Source of the DNA: Bacilli bacterium
GTDB taxonomy: Bacteria; Bacillota_I; Bacilli_A; RFN20; CAG-826
Assembly: GCA_024696885.1 (NCBI GenBank)
Contig: JAILGI010000038.1
Location: 1-41,953 of the forward strand
Direction of reading: 5' to 3'
Length of the DNA: 41,953 nucleotides
The notes beneath the pieces were generated by a model, which made no database searches, was not told the DNA's origin, and was given only the letters and a program-made list of their open reading frames with translations. This document shows, piece by piece, positions 9,088 through 36,631 of the stretch (position 1 is the stretch's first letter; every line of letters begins with the position of its first letter). The position numbers and the translations under genes are program-made.

Positions 9088-9679
9088 TGAAACTTCCCCC
9101 AAAATTTTGCCCAAATCAGGGTAAAATGGAAGGGGGTTTTATTTATGCCAGACAATACTCTTAAATACACCCGAGCGGAAAAACTCAAAATCGTCAAAGA
9201 ACATGTTGATGATGGTTTGTAATACGATGAATTATCAAAAAAATATGGTTTGGCAACTTCTACAATCAAATATCAAGTTCGCTTATATTTAGCGCATGGC
9301 GATTCCATCTCACTAGCGATATTGCAAAGCGATATGGGATGGCAATATCAAATGCAAAAATATCATGACAAATTGGAAGAATTAAAGATAATTCAATCAA
9401 TGTCTAGAAAAGGAAATTGCTTAGATAACTCTCCAACTGAGAACTTCTTTGGGCGAATGAAAGAAGAAATGTTTTATGGTAAAGAGCATTTATATAAAAC
9501 TATATCGCAGCTTGAGGAAGCAATTATTCGATACATCGAATATTACAATAAAAAAAGAATTGTTGTTAAACTAGGTATGAGTCCATATCGATACCGATTA
9601 TCTTTACAAAATAATTGTAATCTAGTTTAATGTAGGCAAGAGTTAATACCCATTGGGCAAAAGAAATGGGGAAGGTACA
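9088..9679 (+). mobile_element. Internally deleted IS3/IS150-family insertion sequence (592 bp)
   Basis: TG...CA ends with imperfect inverted repeats (TGAAACTTCCCCCAAAATTTTGCCCAA vs revcomp TGTACCTTCCCCATTTCTTTTGCCCAA); transposase remnant inside. Confidence 0.88.
9145..9630 (+). pseudogene. IS3 transposase pseudogene (OrfA HTH joined to OrfB C-terminus)
   Basis: MPDNTLKYTRAEKLKIV... has TAA at 9220; the same frame continues into QSDMGWQY and SMSRKGNCLDNSPTENFFGRMKEE. Confidence 0.88.
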
Positions 9680-9687
9680 AGAACCTT

Positions 9688-9716
9688 AAAAGCGGCGTAA
9701 GTCGCTTTTTTATTTC
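9688..9716 (+). terminator. Intrinsic terminator, probably the original ssrA terminator
   Basis: AAAAGCGGC-GTAA-GTCGCTTTT followed by a T run. Confidence 0.8.
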
Positions 9717-9723
9717 TTAAACG

Positions 9724-9754
9724 AAAAAAGCCAAGGCTAATTTTCACCTTGGCT
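9724..9754 (-). terminator. Intrinsic terminator of the LRR protein gene
   Basis: AGCCAAGG...CCTTGGCT stem with a T-tract on the minus strand. Confidence 0.75.
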
Positions 9755-9782
9755 CATTCTAATAAATTAGAATCATTAACGA

Positions 9783-11672
9783 CTATTTCCAAATAACTTG
9801 GAGATTATCGTAATGATATGGATCGTGCCAGCTAGCAATAGTTACTTCTGCTAAAGCTTCATCCGCAAAATCAACAGTTCTATTGTGAATTTGTTCATTT
9901 GATGGGAATGCTGTGATTGCAGCAGCATCAACTCCACTCTTCATTCTTAAGATAATGAAGCAGTTTTTGTCTGTTGGAACATTGATTGTGTATTTGTAAT
10001 CAACTGGTGCGTTGTGATCATAGTAGAAAGCTCCTGATGCGTTATCGCCTTGTGTCCAAGCCCAAACTGCAAACCATGCACCATCTACATCGAATTCAGC
10101 GCTGGATTGAATGGTAAGTGTATCAGACCACACTCTTGGAGCGTCGTTTGATCCAACTCTGTGCCAGAATCCATCTGCGTGTTCAGGTGCGTCAACAGCT
10201 GGTTCATTTTCTGAATAGAAATAGAATTTAACATTTTGAGAATCCATTGTCTTGGAATCTGCCCAGTCTTCTGACCATGAATCTAATGGTTCGGTTGCTT
10301 CGAAGAACACTCTTGCGCCATCTCCGAGTTGGCCTAAACCTCTTGCGTCAATAATAGTGTTTGCTGGGAGGACTAAGTGTCCTTCGAAATTTCTTAATGG
10401 ATTCCAATAAAGTTTAACAGCACCGGATCCATTGAATTGAATGTCATAAAGTTTTTCACTGTATGATAAAGCATAACTATCAAACGCTAATTGATTTGTA
10501 TTTTGTAAAATTAAGGTTTCAAGGTTAGCAGTTTCTCTCATTGAAGAATCATGAAGTCTCACAACTTCAGCAGGAACTGTAAATGATGTTCCAGCTCTCT
10601 TTGATGGATATTTATAAAGAACAGTTCCATTATCTGCGTAGAGAATATTATCAACAACTGTGAAATATCCTTCGTCATAATCGTCTTCAATAGCAATAGT
10701 TGCTAAATTTTCCATATCGTAGAATGTGTAATAGTCAAAATTGTATTGATAATCACATGCGCGTTTTGGAAGTGTGAGAGAGGTTAAGGCTCTACAACCT
10801 CTGAATGCCCCACTCATTGAAATATTTCCTGTTCCACCAGCTTCGAATGTGACAGTAGCAATATTGTCACAATCATAAAACGCATCCCTCATTTCTGAAA
10901 TTGTATTAGGAATGGTTACTGATAATAAGGAATCTTCATCTTCGAAAGCGTAATCGTTGATTGCAGTAACGTCTAAACCATCAACTTGTTTAGCGATAAC
11001 GGCGTTTTCTAATGAATGATTGTCTAAACCTAATACTACGGCGTGGTCTTCAAGTTTTCTATATTTGATGCCATCAACAACCTTATATGGGTTAGTTCCA
11101 GATTCACATGCGTTACCGTATTTAATAACGAATTGTTTAATATATGGTGCAGAATATGCGTTACCACTGGTAACTAAAACATAATTTGGATGGTCACCTT
11201 CAAAATCGTATTCATATGAAGGATTAATTGTTAATTGCTTGATGCCAACATATTCGATAACACCAGCATTTTCAAATCCCCATTTGATGTAGAATGTGCC
11301 ATAACCAGTAATCGTGATGGAATTCATGGAACGAATCTCATTTTCTCCACCAGCTTCGTATGGGTTGCAAATGTAACCGACTTCATTTTGATCGATGTAA
11401 ACTGCATCGTCGCCTTCGCTGTATCTAGCGTTGACATAAGCAAAACTTACATCGTTTTGAAGTTGGTCTGTTTTGGCTACAAAGCTTCCACTTACAGGAT
11501 TCTCTGTTTCTGTTGTAATGTCAGTGTCTTCAACTGTGATTGAGTAGAAATCATCAGTACCAGTTGTTCTACTGAACATATCGGATCCACGATTCATTGA
11601 TACTAACGATACAACAAGCGTGGAACATGCTGTGATAGTAACCAAACTAAGAAGATAAGCTCTCTTGTTCAT
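9783..11672 (-). CDS. Secreted/surface BspA-type leucine-rich repeat protein with a possible C-terminal carbohydrate-binding module
   Basis: Signal-like N-terminus; VTAINDYAF, SVTIPNTI, AFRGCRALTSLTLP and YFTVVDNILY repeats. Confidence 0.8.
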   Translation of the reverse strand: MNKRAYLLSLVTITACSTLVVSLVSMNRGSDMFSRTTGTDDFYSITVEDTDITTETENPVSGSFVAKTDQLQNDVSFAYVNARYSEGDDAVYIDQNEVGYICNPYEAGGENEIRSMNSITITGYGTFYIKWGFENAGVIEYVGIKQLTINPSYEYDFEGDHPNYVLVTSGNAYSAPYIKQFVIKYGNACESGTNPYKVVDGIKYRKLEDHAVVLGLDNHSLENAVIAKQVDGLDVTAINDYAFEDEDSLLSVTIPNTISEMRDAFYDCDNIATVTFEAGGTGNISMSGAFRGCRALTSLTLPKRACDYQYNFDYYTFYDMENLATIAIEDDYDEGYFTVVDNILYADNGTVLYKYPSKRAGTSFTVPAEVVRLHDSSMRETANLETLILQNTNQLAFDSYALSYSEKLYDIQFNGSGAVKLYWNPLRNFEGHLVLPANTIIDARGLGQLGDGARVFFEATEPLDSWSEDWADSKTMDSQNVKFYFYSENEPAVDAPEHADGFWHRVGSNDAPRVWSDTLTIQSSAEFDVDGAWFAVWAWTQGDNASGAFYYDHNAPVDYKYTINVPTDKNCFIILRMKSGVDAAAITAFPSNEQIHNRTVDFADEALAEVTIASWHDPYHYDNLQVIWK

Positions 11673-12064
11673 TTGTACTTCTTGCTATTAGCCATCCTAG
11701 CAAACGCTCCTTTTAATAAAAAATGGGCTAAACTTAAAATAAACTTAAGCGGAATGTTATATGGCCATTTGATAAGTGACCATAGCAAAACATTTAATAC
11801 ATTATAAAATACTTTTACTTAATTTGAGAGTTTTTTATTAGAAATATGCAAATATATAACATCGACAAACAACAAAATAAAAATTTATTTATAAATAAAT
11901 AATTGTTTTGCAGTAGTGGTGCATTTAAATCGAATTATTAGATTTTGAAGATAGATGACTTTGTGCTTTTATTTATTTCATTGACTGTTCAAATTTTAAG
12001 ATACATATTGAAAAATGAACACATAGTGTTAATATAATCTTGTTTAAACAAGGAGATAACTAAA

Positions 12065-13633
12065 ATGACAGTTTATTCAGGTCAAATATTAAGCGTAAAC
12101 GCAAATGATGATGTATTTAAATATCTCGTCGAAGATAAGGGAAAAATCGTTTTCGTGGGAAATGAGCTTCCTGAACAATATAAAAATGCAAAAGTCGTGG
12201 AATTAGGTGAAAAAGTTTTAACTCCTACATTCTGTGACTCCCATCAACACTTCGCCAGCTTCTCAATGTTCAACGCTGGACTTAACGTTATGGATTGTGA
12301 ATCTAACGAACAAATGATGGAAGAAATCAAAAAATTCGTCGCAAAAAGTAAGAATAAAACCCTTCTCGCTTTTGGTGCTTCCCCATATTCCGTTAAGGAA
12401 AGAGTGCTATTAAGTAGAGAACAATTAGATAAAGTATGTCCAAAGAAACCAATGATGATCGTTAAATACGATGGCCATGCTTGTATCGTTAACTCCGTCT
12501 TATTAAAGAAATTAGATAAAAAATTAAAACCTTTAAGAGGTTACCACCCAGATACCGGTGAAATGAATCAAGAAGCATTCTTTGTTGTTTCCGATTACAT
12601 TTCTAATTCCATTTCTGTCTTTGGTTTATTAAAACAAATGCAACAAGCCGCGGATTTCCAAGCTAAACGCGGTATTGGTTTAATTCACACCGTTTCCGGT
12701 GTCGGTTTCCCAATGAACCTCGATATTACGTTTGAAAAAATCTTTGGCAAATCCTTACAACGCGGTTTGCAATTAAGAGTTTTCTCTCAATCTTTAAATC
12801 CAAAGGTTGCTAAAAAACGTCACTTACCACGTATCGGTGGTTGTTTCGAATGCGCCTTAGATGGCTGCTTTGGTTCCCAAGATGCATCCATGAATGAACC
12901 ATATATCAATGATAAGAACAACTCTGGTGTCCTTTATTATTCCGATGAAAAGGTCACTAACTTCTTAAAGAAAGCCAATAGAATGGGTCTTCAAATTGAA
13001 ATGCATGCGATTGGTGATAAAGCCTTTGATCAAGCCACACGCTGTATGAAAGCCGCTCTTGATGATTTCCCAAGAGAGGATCATAGACATGGTATTATTC
13101 ATGACTGTTTACCAACGGAAGAAGGCATTAAGATTTGTAAGGATTACCACATTCAAATGCCTGTCCAAACCGCTTTTATCGGTTGGAAACAAGAACCAGA
13201 TGAATACTTAGAAGAAATCTTAGGTAAAGAAAGAGCCAATAGACTCAATCCATTAAGAACCTTCTTAAATAATAATATTATGATGTCCGCAGGTAGTGAT
13301 GGTCCATGTACCACACCTGATCCAATCGATTGGATTTATAAAGCCTGTAACCATTCCAATCCAAAAGAATCCTTAACCGCGAAAGAAGCATTAAGAATTT
13401 GTACCTATAATGGTTATTGGACAACATTTGATGAAAAAGAAAGAGGCAGCCTTGAAGTCGGTAAAATCGCCGATATGGTTATCCTTTCTAAAAACCCATA
13501 TGAAACACCAGTTAAAGAATTGAACACCATTAAAGTGGAACAAACATTCTTAGGTGGTGTCGCCTATCAAAATCAAAAACAATCCGTTTTGGGTATGATT
13601 TTTAGAGGCATATTCAACCATCACAAAGTGTAA
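12065..13633 (+). CDS. Amidohydrolase 3 (YtcJ-like)
   Basis: DSHQH, MHAIGDKA, AGSDGP and GSLEVGKIADMVIL; AGGAG SD. Confidence 0.9.
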   Translation: MTVYSGQILSVNANDDVFKYLVEDKGKIVFVGNELPEQYKNAKVVELGEKVLTPTFCDSHQHFASFSMFNAGLNVMDCESNEQMMEEIKKFVAKSKNKTLLAFGASPYSVKERVLLSREQLDKVCPKKPMMIVKYDGHACIVNSVLLKKLDKKLKPLRGYHPDTGEMNQEAFFVVSDYISNSISVFGLLKQMQQAADFQAKRGIGLIHTVSGVGFPMNLDITFEKIFGKSLQRGLQLRVFSQSLNPKVAKKRHLPRIGGCFECALDGCFGSQDASMNEPYINDKNNSGVLYYSDEKVTNFLKKANRMGLQIEMHAIGDKAFDQATRCMKAALDDFPREDHRHGIIHDCLPTEEGIKICKDYHIQMPVQTAFIGWKQEPDEYLEEILGKERANRLNPLRTFLNNNIMMSAGSDGPCTTPDPIDWIYKACNHSNPKESLTAKEALRICTYNGYWTTFDEKERGSLEVGKIADMVILSKNPYETPVKELNTIKVEQTFLGGVAYQNQKQSVLGMIFRGIFNHHKV

Positions 13634-13639
13634 TAAACA

Positions 13640-15406
13640 ATGGATAAAAACACCTTTCTTGTATTAAGAAACTATTTTAAGTACGGCCCTGATTCTTTAA
13701 GAAATGTCGCTAAAAAGACCGGCCTTTCTTTAGGCACGCTTTCTAAAGTTCATAAGCAACTATTAGAACAAAAGTTTATCGACACAAAAGGCATTACTGA
13801 ATTAGGAAAAAAAGCATTAGAACCATATCGTGTGAATAACGCAATTATTATGGCCGCTGGCATGTCCACAAGACTTGCCCCTTTATCCTTTGATAAACCC
13901 AAAGGATTATTTGAAATTAAAAATGAAATCTTAATCGAAAGGCAAATTAAACAACTCTTAGAAGCGGGTATTAAAGAAATCATTTTAGTGCTCGGTTATA
14001 AGAAAGAATCCTTCTTCTATTTAGGGGAAAAATATGGTGTCAAAATCATCATTAATTCCACCTATGAAACGAAAAATAACTGCGAAACACTATATTTAGC
14101 GCGTAATTTCTTCTCAAGAACTTATATCTGTTCATGCGATCAATATTTCATTAATAACCCATTCAATGAGTTTGAATATGAAACCTTCTATACATCCGTT
14201 TTAAATAAAACCGATGTTGTTGAGCCACGCGTATCTTTAGGTACAGGTAAACGCATTATAGGATTTAGAAGTAAGAAAAGTGGTCATATCCTTTTAGGCT
14301 TCTCCTTCTGGAACGAAGAGTTTTCTAAAGCATTTAAAAAGTTATTAGAGGATCATCACGACCTCGGCGATTTTGACCGTGATTTCTGGGAAAACGCATT
14401 TGCGAGAAACATCAATAGCTTACCCCCTATGTATATTGATGAAAGAGAAGTAGGCACCATCTTTGAATTTGATAACTTAAAACAATTACGCGACTTTGAT
14501 GAAAAATACATTGAACACACGACAAGCAAGATCATGCAAAATATCGCCAAAGTTTTAAGATGTAAAGAAGGCGACATTACTGACTTTGCTCCTATTCAAG
14601 AAGGATTAACCAATACTTCTTATACATTTATTGTTAAAGGCAAGAAATATGTCTATAGACATCCTGGTTTAGGAACCACTCAATTCATCAATCGTAAAAA
14701 TGAAGAAGAAGCATTAAAAATAGCCAAGAAAATAAACCTTGATCCATCATTCATTAAGATGAACGCTAAAGAGGGTTGGAAGATATCTTATTTCGTCCCT
14801 AACACAAGAGTGCCTGATTACCACAACTTTGAAGATAGCAAAATTGTAATTCGTAAAATGAAACAATTACATGATGCAAACATCAAGGTGGATTTCGCCT
14901 TTGAGCCATGGTACGACGCATTAAAATATGAAAAACATGTCAAAAAGACACAAGGTATCGATATGCCTGACTTTGAAAAATTAAAGAAGGATATCCATAA
15001 GATATATCAAAAAATCGATAAAGATGGCTTATATGAAAAGAGATTATGCCACTGCGATACCTATCAACCAAACTGGCTCATCAAAGAAGATGATGATGTT
15101 GTTTTGATTGACTGGGAATATTCCGGTTCAGCGGACCCAGGAGTGGATGTCGGTTATTTCATCGTGGATGCGATGTATGATTTTGATGAAGCAAAAAAAT
15201 TTATTAAAGAATATCTACAAGATAAATATTCATTAAAAGAAGAAGAACACTTCATGTCATATGTAGCGATTATCGCTTACTATTGGTTTGTTTGGGCCTT
15301 ATACAAACAATCAATCGGTTCCGTTATGGGTGAAGTTTTATATAATTGGTATTATATGGCGAAGAAATATGCGCAATACGCTTTGAGGACTTATCAATAT
15401 GAATAG
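13640..15406 (+). CDS. HTH + LicC-like cytidylyltransferase + LicA-like choline/ethanolamine kinase fusion
   Basis: SLRNVAKKTGLSLGTLS HTH; MAAGMSTRLAPL..KPK; GLTNTSY, CHCD and LIDWEYSG kinase motifs. Confidence 0.9.
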   Translation: MDKNTFLVLRNYFKYGPDSLRNVAKKTGLSLGTLSKVHKQLLEQKFIDTKGITELGKKALEPYRVNNAIIMAAGMSTRLAPLSFDKPKGLFEIKNEILIERQIKQLLEAGIKEIILVLGYKKESFFYLGEKYGVKIIINSTYETKNNCETLYLARNFFSRTYICSCDQYFINNPFNEFEYETFYTSVLNKTDVVEPRVSLGTGKRIIGFRSKKSGHILLGFSFWNEEFSKAFKKLLEDHHDLGDFDRDFWENAFARNINSLPPMYIDEREVGTIFEFDNLKQLRDFDEKYIEHTTSKIMQNIAKVLRCKEGDITDFAPIQEGLTNTSYTFIVKGKKYVYRHPGLGTTQFINRKNEEEALKIAKKINLDPSFIKMNAKEGWKISYFVPNTRVPDYHNFEDSKIVIRKMKQLHDANIKVDFAFEPWYDALKYEKHVKKTQGIDMPDFEKLKKDIHKIYQKIDKDGLYEKRLCHCDTYQPNWLIKEDDDVVLIDWEYSGSADPGVDVGYFIVDAMYDFDEAKKFIKEYLQDKYSLKEEEHFMSYVAIIAYYWFVWALYKQSIGSVMGEVLYNWYYMAKKYAQYALRTYQYE

Positions 15407-17279
15407 AGAATTGTTTAATCAATTAGTTGCACTAGAAAAAGAAAACAAATTAAATAAAGAACAATTAGAAGCCTTAGAACCATATCGCGTTAAAAGAGCT
15501 ATTATTATGGCTGCGGGTTTTGGTTCACGTATGATGCCTATTACTTTATTCACCCCAAAGCCATTAGTGACAGTCAACGGTGTACGTATCATCGAAACAT
15601 TAATTGAAAAAATCGTCAAAGTGGGTATCAAAGAAATCTATCTCGTAAGAGGTTATTTAAAACAACAATTTGATGTCTTATTAGAAAAATATCCTTTCAT
15701 TAAATTTATCGATAATGATGATTTTGATAAGGAAAACAATATATCAAGTGCGATTAGATTCGCTCATTTATTAGATAACACTTATGTTTGCGAAGCTGAT
15801 TTTGTGGTTCGCGGAGATGATGTTATCACTAAATATCAATATGAATCTAATTATCTAGGAACACCAGTCAAAGAGACTGACGATTGGTGTTATGACGTCG
15901 ATAGTAATGATGTTATCCATAATTATCGTAAAGGCGGTAAAGACTGTTACCAAGCCTTTGGTATTTCCTATTGGAATGAAAAAGATGGTGCATTCCTAGC
16001 TAAAAAGTTATTAGAAATGCACGAAGATAAAAAGAATCGTCAAGAATTCTGGGAAATGTGTTTCTTCTCCATTTATCAAAATGAATTTAACGTCCACGCA
16101 AGAGCGTGCGCTAAAGAATCTATTTTTGAAATTGATTCATTCGATGAATTATGCGCGGTGGATCCATCTCATAGATTAGGTGAAAGAAAGAGAATCGGTG
16201 TTGTAGGCGCTGGTAATATGGGCACCATATTAGCCACCAAGTTCTCCTTAAGCCATGATGTTGCTTTATATGACAACGTCGGTTCTATGAAAAACTGCGT
16301 TGATAACATCATGAATGTGAGAGATGAAGACAACAAGATTACTTATTCGGCAAAAATCAAAACCATTACATCTGATTTAAAAGAATTTGTTTCTTTATCT
16401 GATTATATTTTTATTACCTTCCCTTCCTTCCTTTTTAAAGGATTAGCCAAAGATTTAATTCCTTTATTACATGAAGGACAACATTTAATCTTTATCCCTG
16501 GTAGTGGAGGTGCGGAATTCTATTTTCATGAAGCTCTTAAAAAAGGCGTTACCATTTCTGGTTTACAAAGAGTGCACTGTGTCGCTCGTATATTAGAACC
16601 TGGTAAGTTAGTAAGAGAATCCGGCAAAAAATCACTCTTAAAAGTGGCGTCTATTCCATCTAGTTATAATCACACTGCCTCTATGCTCATTAATGAGTTA
16701 TTTGGTATTAAGGTTCATGAATTAGATAATTACTTAAATATCACCTTAATCAATAGTAATGCAGTGTTACATACATCTCGTTTATATAACCTCTTCCATG
16801 ACTATCATGAAGGAGTTTATTACAGTAAAAACCCATTATTTTACGAATCTTGGAATGATGAAACCTCTATTCTATTAGAGAAAATGGATAACGAATTAGC
16901 ATCCTTATTCCCCATGTTTGAAACCTATGGATTACCAGTGAAAGATATTCCCGGCATTCTCCCATATTATGATTCTGAAACCCCAGAACAAATGACAAGA
17001 AAGATTATTAGTATTGCAGGATTCAAAGGTTTATATTCCCCAATGAAAGAAGTGGAGCCAGGTAAATTCATTCCTGATTTCTCAAGTCGATACTTCACCG
17101 CGGACTTCCCATTTGGTTTAGATATCATCTTAGAGTTCTTAAGACTATTTGAAATGAAGAAAGATAACTGCGAAATGGTGTCATCTTGGTATAAGGAAAT
17201 GATTAAACCAGAATCAGTCTTCTCCTTCAAAGATTTCAACATTAATACAAAAGAAGAACTAATTAATCTTTATAAATAA
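15399..17279 (+). CDS. LicC-like cytidylyltransferase fused to NAD(P)-dependent opine (octopine/nopaline-type) dehydrogenase
   Basis: MAAGFGSRMMP..TPKPL N-domain; from about 16188 VVGAGNMG, NAVLHTSRLY, PLFYESW and SRYFTADFPFGL. Confidence 0.85.
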   Translation: MNRELFNQLVALEKENKLNKEQLEALEPYRVKRAIIMAAGFGSRMMPITLFTPKPLVTVNGVRIIETLIEKIVKVGIKEIYLVRGYLKQQFDVLLEKYPFIKFIDNDDFDKENNISSAIRFAHLLDNTYVCEADFVVRGDDVITKYQYESNYLGTPVKETDDWCYDVDSNDVIHNYRKGGKDCYQAFGISYWNEKDGAFLAKKLLEMHEDKKNRQEFWEMCFFSIYQNEFNVHARACAKESIFEIDSFDELCAVDPSHRLGERKRIGVVGAGNMGTILATKFSLSHDVALYDNVGSMKNCVDNIMNVRDEDNKITYSAKIKTITSDLKEFVSLSDYIFITFPSFLFKGLAKDLIPLLHEGQHLIFIPGSGGAEFYFHEALKKGVTISGLQRVHCVARILEPGKLVRESGKKSLLKVASIPSSYNHTASMLINELFGIKVHELDNYLNITLINSNAVLHTSRLYNLFHDYHEGVYYSKNPLFYESWNDETSILLEKMDNELASLFPMFETYGLPVKDIPGILPYYDSETPEQMTRKIISIAGFKGLYSPMKEVEPGKFIPDFSSRYFTADFPFGLDIILEFLRLFEMKKDNCEMVSSWYKEMIKPESVFSFKDFNINTKEELINLYK

Positions 17280-17281
17280 AT

Positions 17282-17311
17282 AAAAAGCACAAGTTCATCA
17301 CTTGTGTTTTT
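17282..17311. terminator. Bidirectional terminator overlapping the licD stop
   Basis: AAAAAGCACAAGT-tcatc-ACTTGTGTTTTT. Confidence 0.75.
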
Positions 17312-18146
17312 TACTCATATATTCTTTATAACCTTCGGTTAATGAGAATCCTTTGTTGTAATGGTGACCCACCTGCTGCTCAATAGGTGGCAGTTTCATA
17401 TAATCGCCAAAGATACATGTGAGGTAATCATGATATCTTTTCATGACCCTGGCTTGCATGTCTTCAAATTGGACATAGACGAAGTCAGAGAAGATGTCGC
17501 TATCCATAGCCGCTCGTTTAAATGTGTAACCGAATAAATTACCGGATAAAGCGCATTCTTCCATCTTTAATTTCTTCGCGTATTTATCCATTCTCTTATT
17601 TCTAAAATGAGCAATGTCGAATAGGTAAGGAATAGCCACGGCAATATCAATCATAATGTCTTTAAACCATGTTTTCTTTTGTGGTTTTCGCATCAACGCG
17701 GGTAAATAGGAAAGATAGAATTGTCGCCAGATAAATTTGACTTTTTTTGCGCATTTCTCGCGTGGAATTGGCTCTTTGCTCATTCCATCAATCGGGAAAA
17801 TATCAATCCAAACACCGTGATTTATACGATGGTTTTTAAAGTGATCTTCAATAAACGTAGTGGAGGAATCTCTGAGCTTTGCGTATCCATATGTATAATG
17901 TGGATCTGATTTCCACCACTGAATGAAATATGGAGTTCCTTCATATTCTTTTTGAAGTGTTAAATACTTTTCATAATCTTCTCTAGGCATCATGACATCT
18001 ATATCATCATCCCAAGGAATGAAACCTTTATGTCTAATCGCACCTAAGCAAGAACCACCATTGAGAAAATATCTTAAATGGTGTTTTTCACAAACATCAT
18101 GAAAGGCTTTAAAGATAACTAATAATCTCGCTTGTAAATCATTCAT
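17298..18146 (-). CDS. licD: LicD-family phosphotransferase
   Basis: GGSCLGAIRHKGFIPWDDDIDV, WIDIFPID and FGDYMKLPP. ATG 18146 preferred to TTG 18155. Confidence 0.92.
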   Translation of the reverse strand: MNDLQARLLVIFKAFHDVCEKHHLRYFLNGGSCLGAIRHKGFIPWDDDIDVMMPREDYEKYLTLQKEYEGTPYFIQWWKSDPHYTYGYAKLRDSSTTFIEDHFKNHRINHGVWIDIFPIDGMSKEPIPREKCAKKVKFIWRQFYLSYLPALMRKPQKKTWFKDIMIDIAVAIPYLFDIAHFRNKRMDKYAKKLKMEECALSGNLFGYTFKRAAMDSDIFSDFVYVQFEDMQARVMKRYHDYLTCIFGDYMKLPPIEQQVGHHYNKGFSLTEGYKEYMSKKHK

Positions 18147-18186
18147 ATCAATCAAATTATAAACAATTCTGAAAGCGTTTAAAACT

Positions 18187-20751: not shown

Positions 20752-22254
20752 ATGCGCGAAGAGAACAAAGCATCTAACTTCAATTTATCACAATTTGGAC
20801 GCGTCCTTGTTTTTGTGGTTCTTGAAGTTTTAGCCTTATTTGCCTCTTCTATTTGGAATTCAATTTACTTATACACAATTGTGAGCATCTTGCTTGTTGT
20901 TCTTGTTATAGCAGTGATGTTCCAACAAGTGAAAAAAGATGGTCTCTCTAATATAGGATTTTTCTTATTCCCCATTCTTGTATATGGTTTTTTATCCGCG
21001 ATAAGTTACCTCTATTTAGATCCTAATTTCGCTTTATCTAATTCCTGGTTCCGTTTTATCGTTCCATTTGGATTAGTGGGCTTTGCTGCTGCGGGATATT
21101 ATATCGCCTCTAATCAGGATTTTAAGATTGGTCATGCCTTATTGGTCATCTATAGTGGTATTGCCTTCTTAACGTTCTTAAACCTTATAGTCACAATGGT
21201 GCAATTTGTGCCTTTTTATACAATTAGATACGCGAATTACTATTTATACTATGATGGTTCGCCATCCCCAGTTCCCGTCTCTGAAATGGCGTATTTCCTC
21301 ACTAATTTCTCATTTGAAGAAGTGTCATTATCTTATTTCACTTTCTATCCGATGATTTTGTTAACCGCCTTCTTACCTTTATCTTTTATTTCTTATAGCA
21401 AACAAAAGAAGACATTCGTAGCCTATCTATCATTTGGCATTTTAGGTTTATTAACCATCATCTTGACAATCAATAAGTTCACTCTCCTTTATTTATTTGT
21501 TATCGCTGTGGTCATAGCCTTAATCAACATCTTCACTAAATTTAATTTAAAAACCAAATGGTTAAAAGTAACCATGAAAATCATCGGCGGATTAGCTATC
21601 GCTGGATTTGTCTTATTATTACTTAACGCTCAAGATAGTGTCTCCACTTTCCGTCTTTCATTCTTAAGAGATTTAACGACTAAGAATGCTTTATTTGATC
21701 GTTTATTTAACTCCAATCGTTTAGTGAGTGGCTATAACGCTATTCTCGATGGAACATTCACTAACGTTAAGATACTTGGTTATCCAATCGCAGGAGCGTA
21801 TCAAAACTTTGGTATGATGACTTGGGTCTTTAACGATTCATCCAATTCCTTCTTCTTTGATTCCTTCTTTGTGTCTGGTTTATTCGGCACTGGATTCCTT
21901 GTCTTTGTCCTTATTATGTGTATCAGACATGTGTTCTTCTATTACATGTATTCAACAGATAAAAAAGAAGATAAAGTATTGGTTATAGGCTTTATTTTAG
22001 TCTCCTTAATCTATTCCTTTATCGCCTTTGATGCGACACCATATGTTTTCTATAACAGTATTGTTCCTTTCTATATGAACAATATCTTCTTTATCATCAT
22101 CTTCTTATTTGGCTATTGCTTATTCAAATCATTGAACTCAAATAGACCAATCGTGGTGAAGAAAGCGATTAAGGAAGAAAAAGAAGGAACACCACTTATT
22201 GTGACTACGACTGAAGAGAAAAAGGAGGAAAAGAAAAATGAAGAAAGTAAATAA
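20752..22254 (+). CDS. Polytopic membrane protein, possibly O-antigen ligase/Wzy-like
   Basis: About 12 hydrophobic segments; large late loop ending SSNSFFFDSFFVSGLFG. Family assignment is tentative. Confidence 0.55.
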   Translation: MREENKASNFNLSQFGRVLVFVVLEVLALFASSIWNSIYLYTIVSILLVVLVIAVMFQQVKKDGLSNIGFFLFPILVYGFLSAISYLYLDPNFALSNSWFRFIVPFGLVGFAAAGYYIASNQDFKIGHALLVIYSGIAFLTFLNLIVTMVQFVPFYTIRYANYYLYYDGSPSPVPVSEMAYFLTNFSFEEVSLSYFTFYPMILLTAFLPLSFISYSKQKKTFVAYLSFGILGLLTIILTINKFTLLYLFVIAVVIALINIFTKFNLKTKWLKVTMKIIGGLAIAGFVLLLLNAQDSVSTFRLSFLRDLTTKNALFDRLFNSNRLVSGYNAILDGTFTNVKILGYPIAGAYQNFGMMTWVFNDSSNSFFFDSFFVSGLFGTGFLVFVLIMCIRHVFFYYMYSTDKKEDKVLVIGFILVSLIYSFIAFDATPYVFYNSIVPFYMNNIFFIIIFLFGYCLFKSLNSNRPIVVKKAIKEEKEGTPLIVTTTEEKKEEKKNEESK

Positions 22255-23083
22255 AAAGATCCTCCTCTTATTCCCCATCTTTATTCTCACAGGATGTGGT
22301 TATGGTTTAAAAGAAGTCTATCCTGGTAATGTTTATAATTCTGTTGATTATAATCTCAACTTCTATAAGGAATGGAATAAGGATTTAAATTACCATGAAG
22401 TGGAAATGGAAAGCGAGAGTCACGTCCTTGATAAAGACGCTGATAAGGTGTTTTTAAGCCCTAATGACGCTTATTTCCCTGATCATAATGATTATGACTA
22501 CGCCGATGATTTAGATTTTAACGATGACACAAGGAGTTATGGTCAAACATTTGCCCTAAGCAAGAGTGAATCCTCCTTCAAATATGGCTATTTATCTAAA
22601 TTATTTGATGGACAAATGTTCTGCCATGGCCGTTATGAATTGGCCCGTGTGCAAATTGGTGAAAGTGGCTTTGCAGCAAAAACCAGTAAAGAATTAAAGG
22701 AATATTCCTATTTTGCGCTTAATTTCAAAGCATCATTAGATTATAGACGCGATGGTGTTTCTACTGGCATTCCCGCTCATAATTCCTCAATTATTTTGAA
22801 GATTAATTTCTACTGTAAAGTTAATAGTTCCACCTATAAACGTGTAGAATTCACCTACCCAATTGAACACGTGAATACAAACTATAGCGAAGCTACAAAT
22901 ATCTATACATTCTTTGGCTTTGACCTTGAAAAATATGATATTAGTAGATGCGCTGGTTACTCTATCGAATATGAACTAGTCCATGATGAATATATTGAAA
23001 GCCATGGAGCGGAGTACACCCCATCGCTTACGCATTGTTTACTTTTATATGAAATGTTTTTACCAGGTTCTACTTGGCATTAA
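22238..23083 (+). CDS. Lipoprotein of unknown function
   Basis: MKKVNKKILLLFPIFILTG-C lipobox; AAGGAGG SD. Confidence 0.8.
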   Translation: MKKVNKKILLLFPIFILTGCGYGLKEVYPGNVYNSVDYNLNFYKEWNKDLNYHEVEMESESHVLDKDADKVFLSPNDAYFPDHNDYDYADDLDFNDDTRSYGQTFALSKSESSFKYGYLSKLFDGQMFCHGRYELARVQIGESGFAAKTSKELKEYSYFALNFKASLDYRRDGVSTGIPAHNSSIILKINFYCKVNSSTYKRVEFTYPIEHVNTNYSEATNIYTFFGFDLEKYDISRCAGYSIEYELVHDEYIESHGAEYTPSLTHCLLLYEMFLPGSTWH

Positions 23084-23987
23084 CAAATTTTGAAATATCT
23101 AACCATTCGCCCATTTCAAAATCACACTTATCATCATCTAAGATTAATGTGCCTTTCGCTGGGGTAAATGTCATTTCGGAAAAATAAATTTTTCCGTTAA
23201 TGTTATATAGATCCACTCTCACGAATGGGAAAGGTTTAGAAAGAATCTCCGCCATCTCAACCATGTCAGACCAATGGTCTGGCTTTTTTAGTGGATAATC
23301 AGTCTTTTTCCAACCATTAAATTGACTGCCATCAAAGGGAGTCCAATCAATATAGTAGTTGTTATAACGAATATCTACTCCACGTGATGAGACAACATAC
23401 ATCGAACGTGCCTTGCCATTAAAGACGTGAATCTTATATTCAAGTGGTAAAGGTTGTCCTTCTTCCACTAAAAACTTCTCAATAATAATCTGTGGTTTAA
23501 TCTTCGCGTAATGTAACTCCACAGTCTTTTTACCATAGTTAGTTTTTAACCATTTATTAAATTTCTTTCTTAATTCTTCTTTATCGATCTTGCTCTTATC
23601 ACGACAAATATAATTAAAAGCGCAAGCGTGAGAACACTTCATTACGAATTGATCAGGAAGCTTATCAAAATCAATCTCATCAAAGGAGTTGTAAACACCA
23701 TAAATAGGGATTAATTTATCGCAAAACCCCTTTCTTTTTAAGTATTCTCTCACTCCCACTCGACCAGCGCACTGACTGACTAAAGGATCTTTTGGATAGA
23801 CAAATAAGCGTAGATATTGCAGCTTTTCTGTATATCTCACAGGGTTTTTCAAATTGAGTTTATGATGGGTAATGTATTTATATTGTGACTTTACATACCA
23901 TGTTTTATTTATAGCCTTAACCACATTACGGAACGGGGCTACAAAAAAACGTTTCACTTTATTTTCTTTAAGATTCGGATTCGGCAT
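23070..23987 (-). CDS. TupA-like ATP-grasp protein
   Basis: LNLKNPVRYTEKLQYL, LPDQFVMK, EYKIHVFNG, FVRVDLY and FSEMTFTP. Confidence 0.92.
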   Translation of the reverse strand: MPNPNLKENKVKRFFVAPFRNVVKAINKTWYVKSQYKYITHHKLNLKNPVRYTEKLQYLRLFVYPKDPLVSQCAGRVGVREYLKRKGFCDKLIPIYGVYNSFDEIDFDKLPDQFVMKCSHACAFNYICRDKSKIDKEELRKKFNKWLKTNYGKKTVELHYAKIKPQIIIEKFLVEEGQPLPLEYKIHVFNGKARSMYVVSSRGVDIRYNNYYIDWTPFDGSQFNGWKKTDYPLKKPDHWSDMVEMAEILSKPFPFVRVDLYNINGKIYFSEMTFTPAKGTLILDDDKCDFEMGEWLDISKFVNAK

Positions 23988-25497
23988 TTTTACGTTCTTC
24001 CTTTCTTTTTTTGGAAAAAGAATAAATTAAATCTTCCTTCAAAAGGAATAAGATTACTAAATAGATAATTCCCGCGATAGCGACAATAGCCACTAATTGA
24101 AGAGTGTAGGCTACTCCATCGGAGAGATTCATATTTTTCCATAAAGTCAATAATGGGTTGTAGATAAGTAAGGAAACACCTAATATCACCGCATTAGCAA
24201 TCAATAATTTAAGTGTATTCATATTAAACACTGTTTTTCTTGTCCATTTCCAAGTTAAAGCGAGTAAGAAAATGATAATCAACACATCGGTGGTTACTGT
24301 TCCAATAGCGACTCCTATCGCCGGTCTGTCTTTAAAGAGGAACATACCTAATCCAATTGATGCGCCAGCGTTAACTAAAGCCCCCACACTAATAGCGATG
24401 AGATAATATTTTTCCTTCTTCATTGGTAAAAGAATTTGTCCATAAATAATATCGCCTATGGAATATGTCGCCATCATCGCTGCTAAAATCATTAAAACGT
24501 ATGGAGCGTTATAGTAATCATCACCTTGCTGGAATGTATATGAGCCAGAAATAAGTCCACATATTGGTTTAGCTAAAACACACATTGTAACTATCGCTGG
24601 TAAAACAATAAACAAACAAATATTGATGGAATACTTATTTAAATTGTTGAAGAAACGCTTATCTTCTTTGGAGTAGTAATAAGCCGCTCTTGGAATAAAG
24701 ACGACTGATAAAGCGGTAATAATACCGATAATAATATCAACACCCTTAATACCAACGGAATAAGAAGCAACTTCGGTTTTGTCGCTATTAATGAAACCTA
24801 AAATAAAGGTATCGGTTTGATTATAAATGGATAAGACTAGTGATAAAGTACATAAAACAAGTAATTGTTTACTATATTGTTTTAAGTTATAAGGCATTGT
24901 TTTCTTAAAGGAAACAAATCTTCTTACATAGTAAACGTTAGCAATTGTGGTAATCACAGTGACCATAATCGCGATTAATGCATAAAGTAAAATATCATCA
25001 GGTGTGGTCACGAAAACAATGATTAAAATCGCAGATATGGTTAAGGCAACAATGCTACGCACCGCCATATAGAATTGTTTTTCTAAAGCGATGAATACCC
25101 ATTCAAAAGAGAAGGCACCCACTAAGAAGTTGAGTGAAAGAATGAATATAAGCGAATGTTGTTCTCTTAAAGCGGGTACAGAGAAAACAACCACACATAA
25201 TAAACCAAATGATAAAATGGTGCTGATTAATTGTAAGAGAAAGAAACCTTGTACTTTATTTGATAATTCTTCCTTGTTGTCTCTCACCTTAACGCATTCT
25301 CTAACCGCTAAGTTAGGAATACCAATCTTCGCTAAAATAAGGAAATAGGCAACAAAAGTATTAGCCCAAGTGTATGTTCCAACTGCGGAATCGCCTAAAT
25401 AACGGCAAACCCATGGAAACGTAATAAAAGAAAGCAAAGTCAAGACGACTGTGCGGATAATATTCACAATGACATTAATACGAATATTGTTCTTCAT
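23968..25497 (-). CDS. Wzx-type polysaccharide flippase
   Basis: ITFPWVCRYLG and VFIPRAAYY; many TM segments; polysaccharide gene context. Confidence 0.9.
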   Translation of the reverse strand: MKNNIRINVIVNIIRTVVLTLLSFITFPWVCRYLGDSAVGTYTWANTFVAYFLILAKIGIPNLAVRECVKVRDNKEELSNKVQGFFLLQLISTILSFGLLCVVVFSVPALREQHSLIFILSLNFLVGAFSFEWVFIALEKQFYMAVRSIVALTISAILIIVFVTTPDDILLYALIAIMVTVITTIANVYYVRRFVSFKKTMPYNLKQYSKQLLVLCTLSLVLSIYNQTDTFILGFINSDKTEVASYSVGIKGVDIIIGIITALSVVFIPRAAYYYSKEDKRFFNNLNKYSINICLFIVLPAIVTMCVLAKPICGLISGSYTFQQGDDYYNAPYVLMILAAMMATYSIGDIIYGQILLPMKKEKYYLIAISVGALVNAGASIGLGMFLFKDRPAIGVAIGTVTTDVLIIIFLLALTWKWTRKTVFNMNTLKLLIANAVILGVSLLIYNPLLTLWKNMNLSDGVAYTLQLVAIVAIAGIIYLVILFLLKEDLIYSFSKKRKEERKNAESES

Positions 25498-26174
25498 CTC
25501 TTATTTATAATAGCCTCAAAAATATCTAAATCCGTTGGGGTGGTAATTTTAAAATTATATTTATCACCCTCAACGATATATACTTCATTTCCCATTGATT
25601 TAACTAAACCAGCGTCATCAGTGAATGATTCGCCTTGACGTAAGTTGTGGGCTTGGTAGATGAGATTAAATAAGAAACTTTGGGGAGTTTGACTTTGATA
25701 AATCTCATCTCTATTTAATGTATGATCAACAGTTTGATTATTCTTAGAAATAACAAGTGTATCGACAGCTTTACACGCTGTTTCAACTGCACCATATTTT
25801 TGGGTTAAATATATGTTATCCTCAATTATTTTTTGAGAAACTAGTGGTCTAGCAGCGTCATGAATCAAAACGATATCATCGTCTTTAACATTCTTTTCTT
25901 TTAAATACTTAAGTGCTAAGAATGTGGATTCTTGACGAGAATTACCACCGGCAATAACACCCACCATTTTTCTTAATGGATATTCCTTTAAGAAGGAACT
26001 AACCCTATCAACATCATTAGAAGGAACAACGAGAAGAATTTTATGAATTAATGGATGGAAATCAAAAGCCTCAAGTGAATAGACGAATAGTGGTTTTTCA
26101 TTTACCATGATAAATTGCTTTTGTTGGCCCATTCTTGTGCCACTTCCTGCGGCTAAAACGATTGCGATATTCAT
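25494..26174 (-). CDS. IspD/TarI-family polyol-phosphate cytidylyltransferase
   Basis: LAAGSGTRMG, GGNSRQES, IHDAARP, QTPQSF, FTDD and NFKITTPTD. Confidence 0.9.
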   Translation of the reverse strand: MNIAIVLAAGSGTRMGQQKQFIMVNEKPLFVYSLEAFDFHPLIHKILLVVPSNDVDRVSSFLKEYPLRKMVGVIAGGNSRQESTFLALKYLKEKNVKDDDIVLIHDAARPLVSQKIIEDNIYLTQKYGAVETACKAVDTLVISKNNQTVDHTLNRDEIYQSQTPQSFLFNLIYQAHNLRQGESFTDDAGLVKSMGNEVYIVEGDKYNFKITTPTDLDIFEAIINKR

Positions 26175-26175
26175 A

Positions 26176-27066
26176 TTATTTCTTCTTTCTCGATAGGGAA
26201 TATTTCACTAAGTGCTTAAATTGTCTTTTTTCTTTTGGGAATGGATCATACCATTTTTCACCATCCCATTTTTTCATACCTTCTTCGCCATATCTCGTGC
26301 GACAGAATTCTTCAATGTTATTGAAGGAATATATCTTATGACCTTCAAAATCATATTCTTTAAACGGATAGATAATATCTTTTGGATAAACATCGGTGTG
26401 CGATGATAAGCCCCAATCCTGGAAAGGAATAATTGGGGTTTGTGAAACAAATTTGGAATCCTTATATTTCTCTGCGATTTTTCTTTCGTACTTTTTCAAA
26501 GATTTCTTAATAAGATGAGGATGAATTCTTAATAAAGAATCGAAGAATGTATATAAAGGCATTCTATTTTTCGCGTATTTTAAAATCTTTTTTCTTTCTT
26601 TTGGGTCCTCAGGTGTACCCACTAAAGCGATCACGTCAAGGAAGAAACCATCGCTGTTATGGCATCTATTAGGAAGAGTGTAAGAATTCTTTTCAAGCAA
26701 ATATGATTCTTTATAACGAATCTTAATAGTGGGGATTAATACGTTGTATCTCTTGTCTGTTTCATAGCTATCGAATGTGAACTCATCACTCAAATCTTTC
26801 TTTAAAGCCTCGATCAATCTAGGAAGATCAAAATAATCGATAGCAGCGTCAATATCATCATCCCAAGGAATGAAACCAGCGTAATTGTACGCGCCTAAAG
26901 CACTACCATATGCGATAGCGTAAGGAATGTTGTTCTTACGACAAACACGGTCTAATTCCAACAAAATCTTTAATAACAATTGGTGTAAGTCCTCAGTAGT
27001 GTGTTCCACTCCATCGAGATCTTTACCAATTGGATATGCTTCTTTTTCTAAAATGTAGTCAGACAT
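26176..27066 (-). CDS. licD: Second LicD-family phosphotransferase
   Basis: YGSALGAYNYAGFIPWDDDID and FFLDV. ATG 27066 preferred to TTG 27096. Confidence 0.88.
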   Translation of the reverse strand: MSDYILEKEAYPIGKDLDGVEHTTEDLHQLLLKILLELDRVCRKNNIPYAIAYGSALGAYNYAGFIPWDDDIDAAIDYFDLPRLIEALKKDLSDEFTFDSYETDKRYNVLIPTIKIRYKESYLLEKNSYTLPNRCHNSDGFFLDVIALVGTPEDPKERKKILKYAKNRMPLYTFFDSLLRIHPHLIKKSLKKYERKIAEKYKDSKFVSQTPIIPFQDWGLSSHTDVYPKDIIYPFKEYDFEGHKIYSFNNIEEFCRTRYGEEGMKKWDGEKWYDPFPKEKRQFKHLVKYSLSRKKK

Positions 27067-27178
27067 AGATATCAATATTAAAGCACAATCACGCAATAAT
27101 ATCTATCAATCGTAGATTATTTTCTATTAGCGAACGATTTATATCGCATGTGATGTTGATTCATCTTATACTAAAATC

Positions 27179-33168: not shown

Positions 33169-33179
33169 AGGAATAAGGC

Positions 33180-36586: not shown

Positions 36587-36631
36587 AAAATCAGTATACA
36601 AGCATGTCATAAAAAATGATATCATTTTTAT

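Follow-up and report, generated by a model that had tools for sequence, protein, structure and literature searches.

Organisation of the locus

The DNA examined here, referred to below as the window, covers positions 1–41,953 of contig JAILGI010000038.1, from a gut-dwelling Bacilli bacterium (assembly GCA_024696885.1; GTDB lineage Bacteria; Bacillota_I; Bacilli_A; RFN20; CAG-826). At 12065–18155 it carries four open reading frames (ORFs), three of which lie on the forward strand and face a convergent gene for a LicD-family transferase. The three forward genes encode an amidohydrolase, a protein in which a winged helix–turn–helix (wHTH) region precedes a LicC-type cytidylyltransferase and a LicA-like kinase, and a fusion of a second LicC-type cytidylyltransferase with an opine dehydrogenase (ODH). 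The comparisons described below make it quite likely that this ODH functions within a LicC/LicD pathway whose head groups are phosphates or phosphonates of amino-alcohols. The four genes are arranged as follows:

12065–13633, forward strand: amidohydrolase (Amidohydro_3, YtcJ-like), 522 amino acids
13640–15406, forward strand: wHTH–LicC1–LicA fusion, 588 amino acids
15399–17279, forward strand: LicC2–opine dehydrogenase fusion, 626 amino acids
17298–18155, reverse strand: LicD-family transferase, 285 amino acids from a TTG at 18155 or 282 from an ATG at 18146

A gap of 6 nt (13634–13639) separates the amidohydrolase gene from the wHTH–LicC1–LicA gene, which in turn overlaps the LicC2–ODH gene by 8 nt (15399–15406); a GAGGA motif stands 9 nt ahead of the start of this third gene. 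The first-pass annotation of this DNA had described a coupled three-gene unit opposed by a convergent LicD, and the lengths that it gave for the gap and the overlap are exact. The end that it gave for LicD, 18146, does correspond to an ATG, which however lies 9 nt inside the TTG-started ORF and leaves the start of the gene ambiguous.

The LicC2–ODH fusion protein

The third gene encodes two domains joined by a short linker:

15474–16172, forward strand: LicC2, PntC-like cytidylyltransferase
16176–17276, forward strand: Octopine_DH-family dehydrogenase

Pfam recognizes an NTP_transferase domain and an Octopine_DH domain (PF02317, 71.4 bits against a cut-off of 30) in the 626-amino-acid protein, and the Rossmann part (residues 265–394) also matches ApbA, NAD_Gly3P_dh_N and F420_oxidored. 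A search of PDB sequences with the whole protein returned LicC (1e-19) and octopine dehydrogenase (OcDH, 8e-18). The LicC2 part matched 1jyk (3e-20) and 6pd1 (2e-10), and the ODH domain matched 3c7a (8e-18). His199, Arg305 and Asp310 of the ODH align by HMMER with His212, Arg324 and Asp329 of OcDH (OcDH positions counted from the printed alignment), and this triad is invariant in 31/31 aligned ODH homologues. We take the OcDH residues to be the catalytic triad, in which the Arg presumably binds the carboxylate of the keto acid. The columns of the glycine-rich loop are covered by 30 of 31 aligned rows, in which G11/G13/G16 are invariant; L051 has an Ala at G16.

An AlphaFold2 model of the ODH domain, built from 19 sequences, has a mean predicted local distance difference test score (pLDDT) of 90. 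In a Foldseek search with this model ranks 1–4 are held by OcDH and carboxyethyl-norvaline dehydrogenase (CENDH; E about 1e-21 to 1e-22, TM 0.76–0.84), OcDH being the best match (TM 0.84), and the identity to opine dehydrogenases is 20–21%. These are followed by the yersinopine, staphylopine and pseudopaline dehydrogenases, with ketopantoate reductase and mandelate dehydrogenase lower. By all the features tested, from motifs to predicted fold, the domain belongs to the opine dehydrogenase family, and its reaction is predicted accordingly from the family. The identity proposed in the first-pass annotation is therefore upheld by an Octopine_DH match above cut-off, by the triad and by an OcDH/CENDH-like fold.

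The fused LicC–ODH form is rare, with only two other clusters (67% identity). Common among the relatives are a stand-alone ODH of 355–370 amino acids and two large proteins, a wHTH–LicC–LicA–wHTH–LicC protein of about 890 amino acids and an ABC-permease–wHTH–LicC protein of about 855. The last LicC domain of these two proteins is the closest relative of the window LicC2. The fusion partner of the wHTH–LicC2 unit thus shifts between the kinase protein (P0010, about 890 amino acids), an ABC permease (P0098, L004:12692–15289, about 855–865 amino acids) and, in the window, the ODH. That such an HTH-like domain can be attached to a permease speaks against a simple role as transcription factor.

Genomic neighbourhood of ODH genes

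Further loci were retrieved by ODH similarity alone from species genomes, metagenome contigs and two samples of about 400 genomes each, together with their flanks. Neighbours were mapped by phmmer with the window proteins and module proteins, and the identities of the modules were confirmed by Pfam and NCBIfam. Collapsing the ODHs at ≥95% identity gave 30 groups in the ingroup and 5 in an outgroup of distant paralogues. All neighbour counts are minimum values, since many of the contigs are short, and genomes that are related do not count as independent. A LicD is found within 10 kb of the ODH gene in 14/30 ingroup groups and a LicC-type nucleotidyltransferase in 17/30, and 22/30 have one or the other; a module that could supply the amine is present in 20/30. 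When LicD, LicC and supply modules are taken together, 26/30 ingroup groups have at least one such neighbour as opposed to 0/5 outgroup groups. From the two LicD genes per 1.08 Mb found in the genome of the window, chance adjacency to a LicD is estimated at a few per cent. The co-occurrence of such dehydrogenases with lic genes elsewhere, the lack of which would have counted against the first-pass annotation, is observed in 22 of the 30 groups with the ODH as the only bait.

The supply modules are of four types, mutually unrelated in sequence. The first consists of a LicA kinase fused to LicC1 together with the amidohydrolase, and is seen in 5 groups (L001, L062, L063, L064 and L069) as well as in the window. 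The second, in 9 groups, is a CobD/HisC-like pyridoxal phosphate (PLP) enzyme, often fused behind LicC in a protein of 602–609 amino acids; the solved protein closest to it is 6oux, ‘threonine phosphate decarboxylase-like’ (3e-43), and the enzyme matches the CobD model TIGR01140 (1e-52). We take 6oux to be a phosphoserine decarboxylase that yields phosphoethanolamine, and the CobD-like enzyme may likewise be a decarboxylase giving phosphoethanolamine. The third (5 groups) comprises a PhnS2-like binding protein, an ATPase and the permease–wHTH–LicC2 fusion. The fourth, in a single group (L021), has an Aminotran_5 gene, a CTP_transf–PEP_mutase fusion and a thiamine pyrophosphate (TPP) decarboxylase with two LicC genes alongside, and by its family assignments is the standard 2-aminoethylphosphonate (AEP) pathway (Ppm/Ppd/transaminase). 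In our reading all four modules deliver a compound of the form H2N-C-C-(O)-P, in which a primary amine lies two carbons from a phosphate or phosphonate. The presence of the ODH beside four unrelated modules that make or import an amine agrees with the earlier prediction of a primary amine, not choline, as substrate.

Other enzymes were observed beside ODH genes. At L067:6132–10918 a distant ODH lies with a TagD-like CTP_transf_like–GFO_IDH_MocA fusion, an Aminotran_1_2 gene and a TagF-like Glyphos_transf gene; this locus could specify a route from CDP-glycerol to CDP-amino-propanediol, the amine of which might then be tailored by the ODH. A gene of the ornithine-cyclodeaminase/mu-crystallin family directly adjoins the ODH at L068:631–1614 and L069:5834–6802. 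The L069 ODH is a 165-amino-acid fragment only, and the ornithine-cyclodeaminase-family enzyme, an NAD(P) imine-type enzyme, may replace it.

A maximum-likelihood tree was made from 30 ODH sequences after the removal of 13 rows, one of them a short sequence and the other 12 duplicates or fragments. Four outgroup rows stand apart from the ingroup on this tree (support 100/100), and L051, the fifth low-scoring paralogue, forms a very long branch inside the ingroup side, where its position is unsure. The window ODH, with that of L001, falls inside a 16-row clade (100/99) in which all four types (kinase, CobD, ABC and AEP) occur. At least two changes of the kinase label are required on the tree, and the ABC and AEP types group together. 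Since the module types are mixed on the ODH tree, the supply modules have been exchanged around a conserved dehydrogenase. Three arginines of the ODH (R132, R138 and R202) were considered as a phosphate site; they are conserved, but as this holds for the outgroup paralogues too, they give no pointer to such a site.

The ODH family comprises 321 clusters at 50% identity (E ≤ 1e-30). With the L064 ODH as query 3820 clusters at 90% identity were found, with Acutalibacteraceae, Ruminococcus and Lachnospiraceae among the sources, and a 99%-identical ODH is recorded under the cultured species Massilicoli timonensis. Among the other sampled genomes of the family to which the window belongs the gene occurs in 1/40, which marks it as an accessory trait. 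The proposed ODH-tailored variant of the Lic/Pnt pathways is probably widespread in gut Bacillota. In the plasmid collection there were seven weak ODH matches (23–28% identity), without Lic neighbours where these were checked. This collection includes a scarcely annotated 4.07-Mb record of Proteus mirabilis (L070, NZ_OL790811.1 839431–864450), whose ODH-like gene (385 amino acids, 25.6% identity) belongs to a long operon, all on one strand, in which neither LicD nor LicC is present. The streptococcal marker family PF04270 was found in 1/399 genomes of the class-level sample, an f6 genome.

The kinase protein and the head-group pockets

The 588-amino-acid protein encoded by the second gene is divided as follows:

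residues 1–60 (approximately): winged-helix-like N-terminus
13820–14524, forward strand: LicC1, LicC-type cytidylyltransferase
14540–15403, forward strand: LicA-like kinase, choline/ethanolamine family

Pfam assigns NTP_transferase and Choline_kinase domains to this protein, and the best PDB sequence matches are Streptococcus pneumoniae LicC (1jyk, 1e-36) and LicA (4r77, 1e-22). For its N-terminus the HTH designation of the first-pass annotation stands only in part, as the match to Pfam wHTH-PRTase_assc is below threshold (E 0.0027, 18.2 bits against a cut-off of 27), whereas homologues carry precomputed HTH families. In an alignment to 4r77 both catalytic motifs, HxD...N and DWEY, are present in the kinase. 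The choline pocket of LicA is an aromatic box of Tyr197, Trp251, Trp254 and Tyr268 together with Glu213 (PMC4364537). The kinase retains Tyr197, Trp251 and Trp254, three of the four aromatic residues, and has a Val at Tyr268 and an Asp at Glu213; from this box it can be called neither choline- nor ethanolamine-specific.

The pockets of the two cytidylyltransferase domains can be compared with those described by Rice et al. (2019; PMC6697681), where the amine pocket of the choline-specific LicC is formed by Asp105 and Asp192, the AEP-specific Tde-PntC contacts the primary amine via Glu104 and Glu196, and the signature GXG(T/S)RX4-8PK is common to LicC and PntC. LicC1 and LicC2 both keep this signature and, in alignments to 1jyk, the Mg-binding Asp at the position of LicC Asp107. 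At the sites of LicC Asp105 and Asp192 LicC1 has Ser and Glu and LicC2 has two Glu residues, the first of which, Glu132, aligns with both LicC Asp105 and Tde-PntC Glu104. The second Glu was placed by a MAFFT alignment and an FWE motif, the HMMER alignment to LicC being gapped there and that to 6pd1 ending before it. The Asp/Asp pair of LicC is found by MAFFT in 0/16 LicC domains from these loci; the CobD-fused LicC has Glu/Glu, and the small LicC of 233–237 amino acids has Glu/Asp. To judge from these alignments the LicC2 pocket probably resembles that of the AEP-specific PntC and not that of the choline-specific LicC.

The amidohydrolase, LicD and the candidate acceptor

The 522-amino-acid product of the first gene matches Pfam Amidohydro_3 (PF07969) with 182.7 bits over positions 1–469 of the 472-position profile. 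Its translation shows an HxH motif (DSHQH) and, further on, metal motifs with His and Asp. Its sole solved relatives, 3icj and 3igh, are both uncharacterized, and the Protein Atlas gives generic names only for the amidohydrolase and the ODH. Orthologues scoring 406–793 bits are present in all 5 other kinase-type locus groups, 4 of which belong to another bacterial family, so that the enzyme is conserved alongside the kinase in this type of locus.

The window LicD matches PF04991 along its full length (positions 1–227 of 227, 165.9 bits against a cut-off of 22.6), and its best NCBIfam match is Mf1 (83 bits against an equivalog cut-off of 225). In L064 a LicD gene, a Polysacc_synt flippase-like gene, ODH, LicC2, the amidohydrolase and LicC1–LicA stand in a row on one strand. 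A membrane protein of 418–420 amino acids adjoins LicD in L062–L066 (L064:9634–10896), with a weak Polysacc_synt match in the L064 copy and no Pfam match in the L065 and L066 copies. It is reminiscent of TacF, the flippase encoded in the pneumococcal lic2 operon. No gene for such a membrane protein adjoins LicD in the window.

The genome of the window (1.08 Mb in 97 contigs, 86% complete, 35.8% GC) contains two LicD genes. A tblastn search of this genome found no CobD-like, PhnS2-like, Ppm or Ppd gene, which leaves the kinase as its only visible supply route. In the same 86% complete genome there was no match to Transpeptidase (PF00905) or LytR_cpsA_psr (PF03816), and Mur_ligase_M gave two weak matches only; the host organism is probably wall-less. 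Given that neither a transpeptidase nor an LCP ligase was found, the acceptor may be a glycolipid, a lipoglycan or a capsule rather than a wall polymer, and an acceptor of the glycolipid type fits the sub-threshold match of LicD to the mycoplasma glycolipid enzyme Mf1.

A glycopolymer locus, with genes on both strands, starts 5 kb downstream of the operon (window 23070–36625). It encodes a TupA-like ATP-grasp protein, a Polysacc_synt/Wzx flippase, an IspD/TarI-like cytidylyltransferase, three GT1 enzymes, the second LicD (26176–27096) and two proteins of 1637 and 361 amino acids without Pfam matches. This locus possibly supplies the acceptor that is decorated. Two ORFs of 500 and 281 amino acids without a Pfam match lie between it and DegV (window 20752–23083), the 500-amino-acid ORF having no NCBIfam match either. 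DNA sequencing runs that contain this sequence come from animal gut metagenomes, with ≥0.84 of the sampled words in 4 runs of one study; no RNA sequencing runs are listed as carrying it.

Signals and flanking DNA

Candidate signals were noted at both ends of the operon:

11981–12009 and 12008–12035, forward strand: two overlapping sigma-70-like promoter candidates from a consensus scan
17288–17306, between the convergent genes: small inverted repeat, candidate bidirectional terminator

The promoter candidates are consensus matches only, promoter-like sites being no more frequent in the scanned stretch than in shuffles. A Shine-Dalgarno-like AAGGAGA stands 8 nt before the first ATG of the operon (feature 11981–12056). 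The hairpin at 17288–17306 has a 7-bp stem with 3 G-C pairs, an A-run on one side and a T-run on the other, and overlaps the LicD stop codon. The first-pass annotation had spoken of a shared terminator. A hairpin does lie between the convergent genes, but with its modest stem it is a weak terminator candidate; the scan reported it on the minus strand only. Just 5′ of the operon (window 9250–11672) are a 126-amino-acid integrase-core (rve) fragment and a 629-amino-acid BspA-type leucine-rich-repeat protein, which hints that the operon adjoins mobile or surface-variable DNA.

Proposed pathway and alternative explanations

We propose that the locus directs a surface decoration of the Lic/Pnt type in which the head group is a primary amine of the 2-aminoethyl-phosphate type, not choline, and is tailored by an enzyme of the opine dehydrogenase family; for this proposal as a whole the balance of the evidence is about even. 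In what is the weakest step of the scheme, the amidohydrolase would free or unmask an amino-alcohol from an amide precursor for use by the kinase. Judged by their families, the LicA-like kinase would then phosphorylate the amino-alcohol and the LicC-type cytidylyltransferases would form the CDP conjugate. Either before or after this nucleotide activation the fused ODH would reductively condense the primary amine with an α-keto acid at the expense of NAD(P)H; pyruvate is suggested as the keto acid by analogy with the Proteus O14 antigen (see below). The predicted product is an N-(1-carboxyalkyl)aminoethyl phosphate, with the zwitterionic head group becoming anionic, and LicD would move this phospho-head group onto a glycan or glycolipid. 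The core logic of the first-pass annotation, a primary-amine head group with opine-style tailoring and LicD transfer, fits the linkage now seen, although its substrate, keto acid and order of steps are still predictions.

Several observations weigh against this proposal. With most of the LicA choline box retained, the kinase may act on choline. The Glu/Glu pocket predicted for LicC2 would accommodate the plain amine more readily than its carboxyalkylated form, and the substrate of the ODH may therefore be the CDP or CMP conjugate that comes from its fused domain. The CobD-like enzymes score about equally with HisC aminotransferase models of NCBIfam, which means that they could instead be aminotransferases, and the PhnS2-like match (TIGR03261, ‘putative 2-aminoethylphosphonate’, 4e-51) is under the family cut-off. 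No Lic-type neighbour is present in 4/30 ingroup groups; here L010 and L011 are very short or at the end of a contig, and L005/L019 and L009/L013 have long housekeeping flanks. Finally, the pneumococcal wchX–gtp1–gtp2–gtp3 genes for CDP-2-glycerol have the same four-part composition.

This last likeness is the basis of the main rival explanation, by which the ODH would be a ketoreductase that like Gtp1 turns dihydroxyacetone into glycerol, a Gtp3-like kinase would yield glycerol-2-phosphate, a Gtp2-like LicC would form CDP-2-glycerol and a WchX-like LicD would transfer the glycerol-2-phosphate, without any opine. From earlier enzymology of Gtp1–3, Gtp1 is said to reduce dihydroxyacetone, and the ODH fold class also includes ketoreductases such as ketopantoate reductase and mandelate dehydrogenase. 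In PMC5581491 and PMC3493582 the LicD-family transferase, dehydrogenase, LicC-like nucleotidyltransferase and APH/choline-kinase-like kinase of pneumococcal serogroups 15 and 23 likewise form one block, and gtp1 is labelled ‘putative glycerol-2-phosphate dehydrogenase’. The pneumococcal order resembles the LicD–ODH–LicC order in L004, L017 and L018, and the NAD_Gly3P_dh_N match of the ODH N-terminus fits the label of gtp1. The likeness is one of gene composition and order; the pneumococcal product is a polyol phosphate, not an amine. The window and the 5 other kinase-type groups add an amidohydrolase and a second LicC, for which the Gtp scheme has no role. A kinase is absent from 14/20 ODH groups with a supply module, which have the PLP enzyme, the phosphonate-type importer or the AEP pathway instead; a dihydroxyacetone reductase has no evident role in such loci, and the window ODH is nested among them. 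The exchange of modules around the ODH is hard to reconcile with a dehydrogenase that serves a polyol route specific to the kinase. No NCBIfam model named for Gtp1 or Gtp3 is among the matches listed (the best 25 of 32–33), and the triad Arg, which we assume to bind a keto-acid carboxylate, is invariant in the ODH homologues. A CDP-2-glycerol route is therefore unlikely.

It is also rather improbable that LicC1–LicA and LicD make an ordinary phosphocholine or phosphoethanolamine decoration while LicC2–ODH and the amidohydrolase serve a separate purpose, either a soluble opine-like metabolite or regulation by HTH–LicC2. Such a division would account for the pneumococcal LicC and LicA being the best matches of LicC1–LicA, for the largely retained choline box and for the LicC–LicA fusions that are common without ODH (many proteins of about 890 amino acids and LicC–permease proteins). 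It sits poorly with the 8-nt overlap that couples the LicC2–ODH gene to the LicC1–LicA gene and with the lack in LicC1 of an equivalent of LicC Asp105. The whole set together with the flippase-like gene recurs, in other orders and fusions, in another family (L062 and L064), the same set minus LicD is found within the stretches fetched for L063 and L069, and a single pathway is favoured by the fusions that join LicC2 with the kinase protein (P0010) or with the permease of the importer (P0098, L004). There is a slight chance that the ODH runs oxidatively on an imported N-carboxyalkyl amine and, with the amidohydrolase, liberates an amino-alcohol for plain phosphoethanolamine decoration. Opine dehydrogenases are reversible, both enzymes can be viewed as ‘release’ enzymes, and a small 1.08-Mb genome reliant on the kinase route would suit scavenging. 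Yet the ODH also accompanies de novo AEP synthesis and the CobD-like enzyme, where there is nothing to release, and its fusion to a cytidylyltransferase suggests a biosynthetic channel.

Relation to known systems and significance

The proposed ODH-tailored pathway follows the Lic pathway of S. pneumoniae and Haemophilus influenzae (LicA, LicB, LicC and LicD) in its sequence of kinase, CTP-dependent activation and LicD transfer. It differs in the PntC-like LicC fused to an ODH, the conserved amidohydrolase, the lack of LicB in the locus, the missing LicC Asp/Asp pair and, by prediction, the primary-amine head group. The Pnt pathway (Rice et al., 2019; PMC6697681) is similar in having LicC-like enzymes whose amine site carries Glu, with LicD-like transferases close by. 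Six ODH groups carry a phosphonate-type supply module, either an importer or de novo AEP synthesis, with the full Ppm/Ppd/transaminase set in L021; the window genome in contrast has no phosphonate genes and uses a kinase. The words ‘opine’, ‘octopine’ and ‘dehydrogenase’ never occur in the text of PMC6697681.

The known opine dehydrogenases (Pecten OcDH, 3c7a–d; Arthrobacter CENDH, 1bg6; and the staphylopine, pseudopaline and yersinopine enzymes) share the two-domain fold, the triad and the Pfam family of the ODH described here. They act on free amino acids or metallophore precursors, however, and are not known to be joined to a cytidylyltransferase or to be associated with LicD. The LicD-family glycolipid phosphocholine transferase Mf1 of Mycoplasma fermentans resembles the window LicD in being its best NCBIfam match, although far under the equivalog cut-off, and the host of the window also looks wall-less; by its title and abstract, PMC11982090 deals with the substrate flexibility of Mf1 and names phosphoethanolamine.

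A chemical precedent for the predicted product had been named in the first-pass annotation, and the corresponding paper does exist: its title reports 2-[(R)-1-carboxyethylamino]ethyl phosphate on the Proteus mirabilis O14 antigen (Perepelov et al., 1999). Going by this title, the O14 substituent is the kind of product predicted here, a phosphoethanolamine opine on a surface glycan, known as chemistry only. In the text of a paper on Proteus O-antigen genetics the terms ‘carboxyethyl’, ‘opine’, ‘LicD’ and ‘ethanolamine’ are absent and the O14 genes are not discussed. In the literature searched, which took in neither subscription journals nor supplements, no paper joins an opine, octopine or nopaline dehydrogenase with LicD, PntC, AEP, CDP-ethanolamine or phosphoethanolamine, and none joins a phospho-amino-acid decarboxylase with LicD or a cytidylyltransferase in bacteria.

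It is conceivable, though on balance slightly doubtful, that gut Bacillota harbour, in the ODHs described here, a large family of ‘phospho-opine synthases’ not described before, which N-carboxyalkylate phosphoethanolamine or AEP head groups before LicD transfer. If so, the family would extend to the first opine of a phosphonate and provide the first genes for N-(1-carboxyethyl)aminoethyl phosphate, which would explain the orphan Proteus O14 decoration. Opine dehydrogenase chemistry would be extended to phosphorylated and phosphonylated amines, and the conserved amidohydrolase would gain a role. As the ODH family is common in gut Firmicutes and present in at least one cultured species, the prediction is directly testable. 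Phosphocholine, phosphoethanolamine and AEP groups on cell surfaces shape recognition by host lectins, antibodies, antimicrobial peptides and phages; an amino-acid-like opine head group would add a new chemical class of decoration to these and would alter the charge of the surface that carries it.

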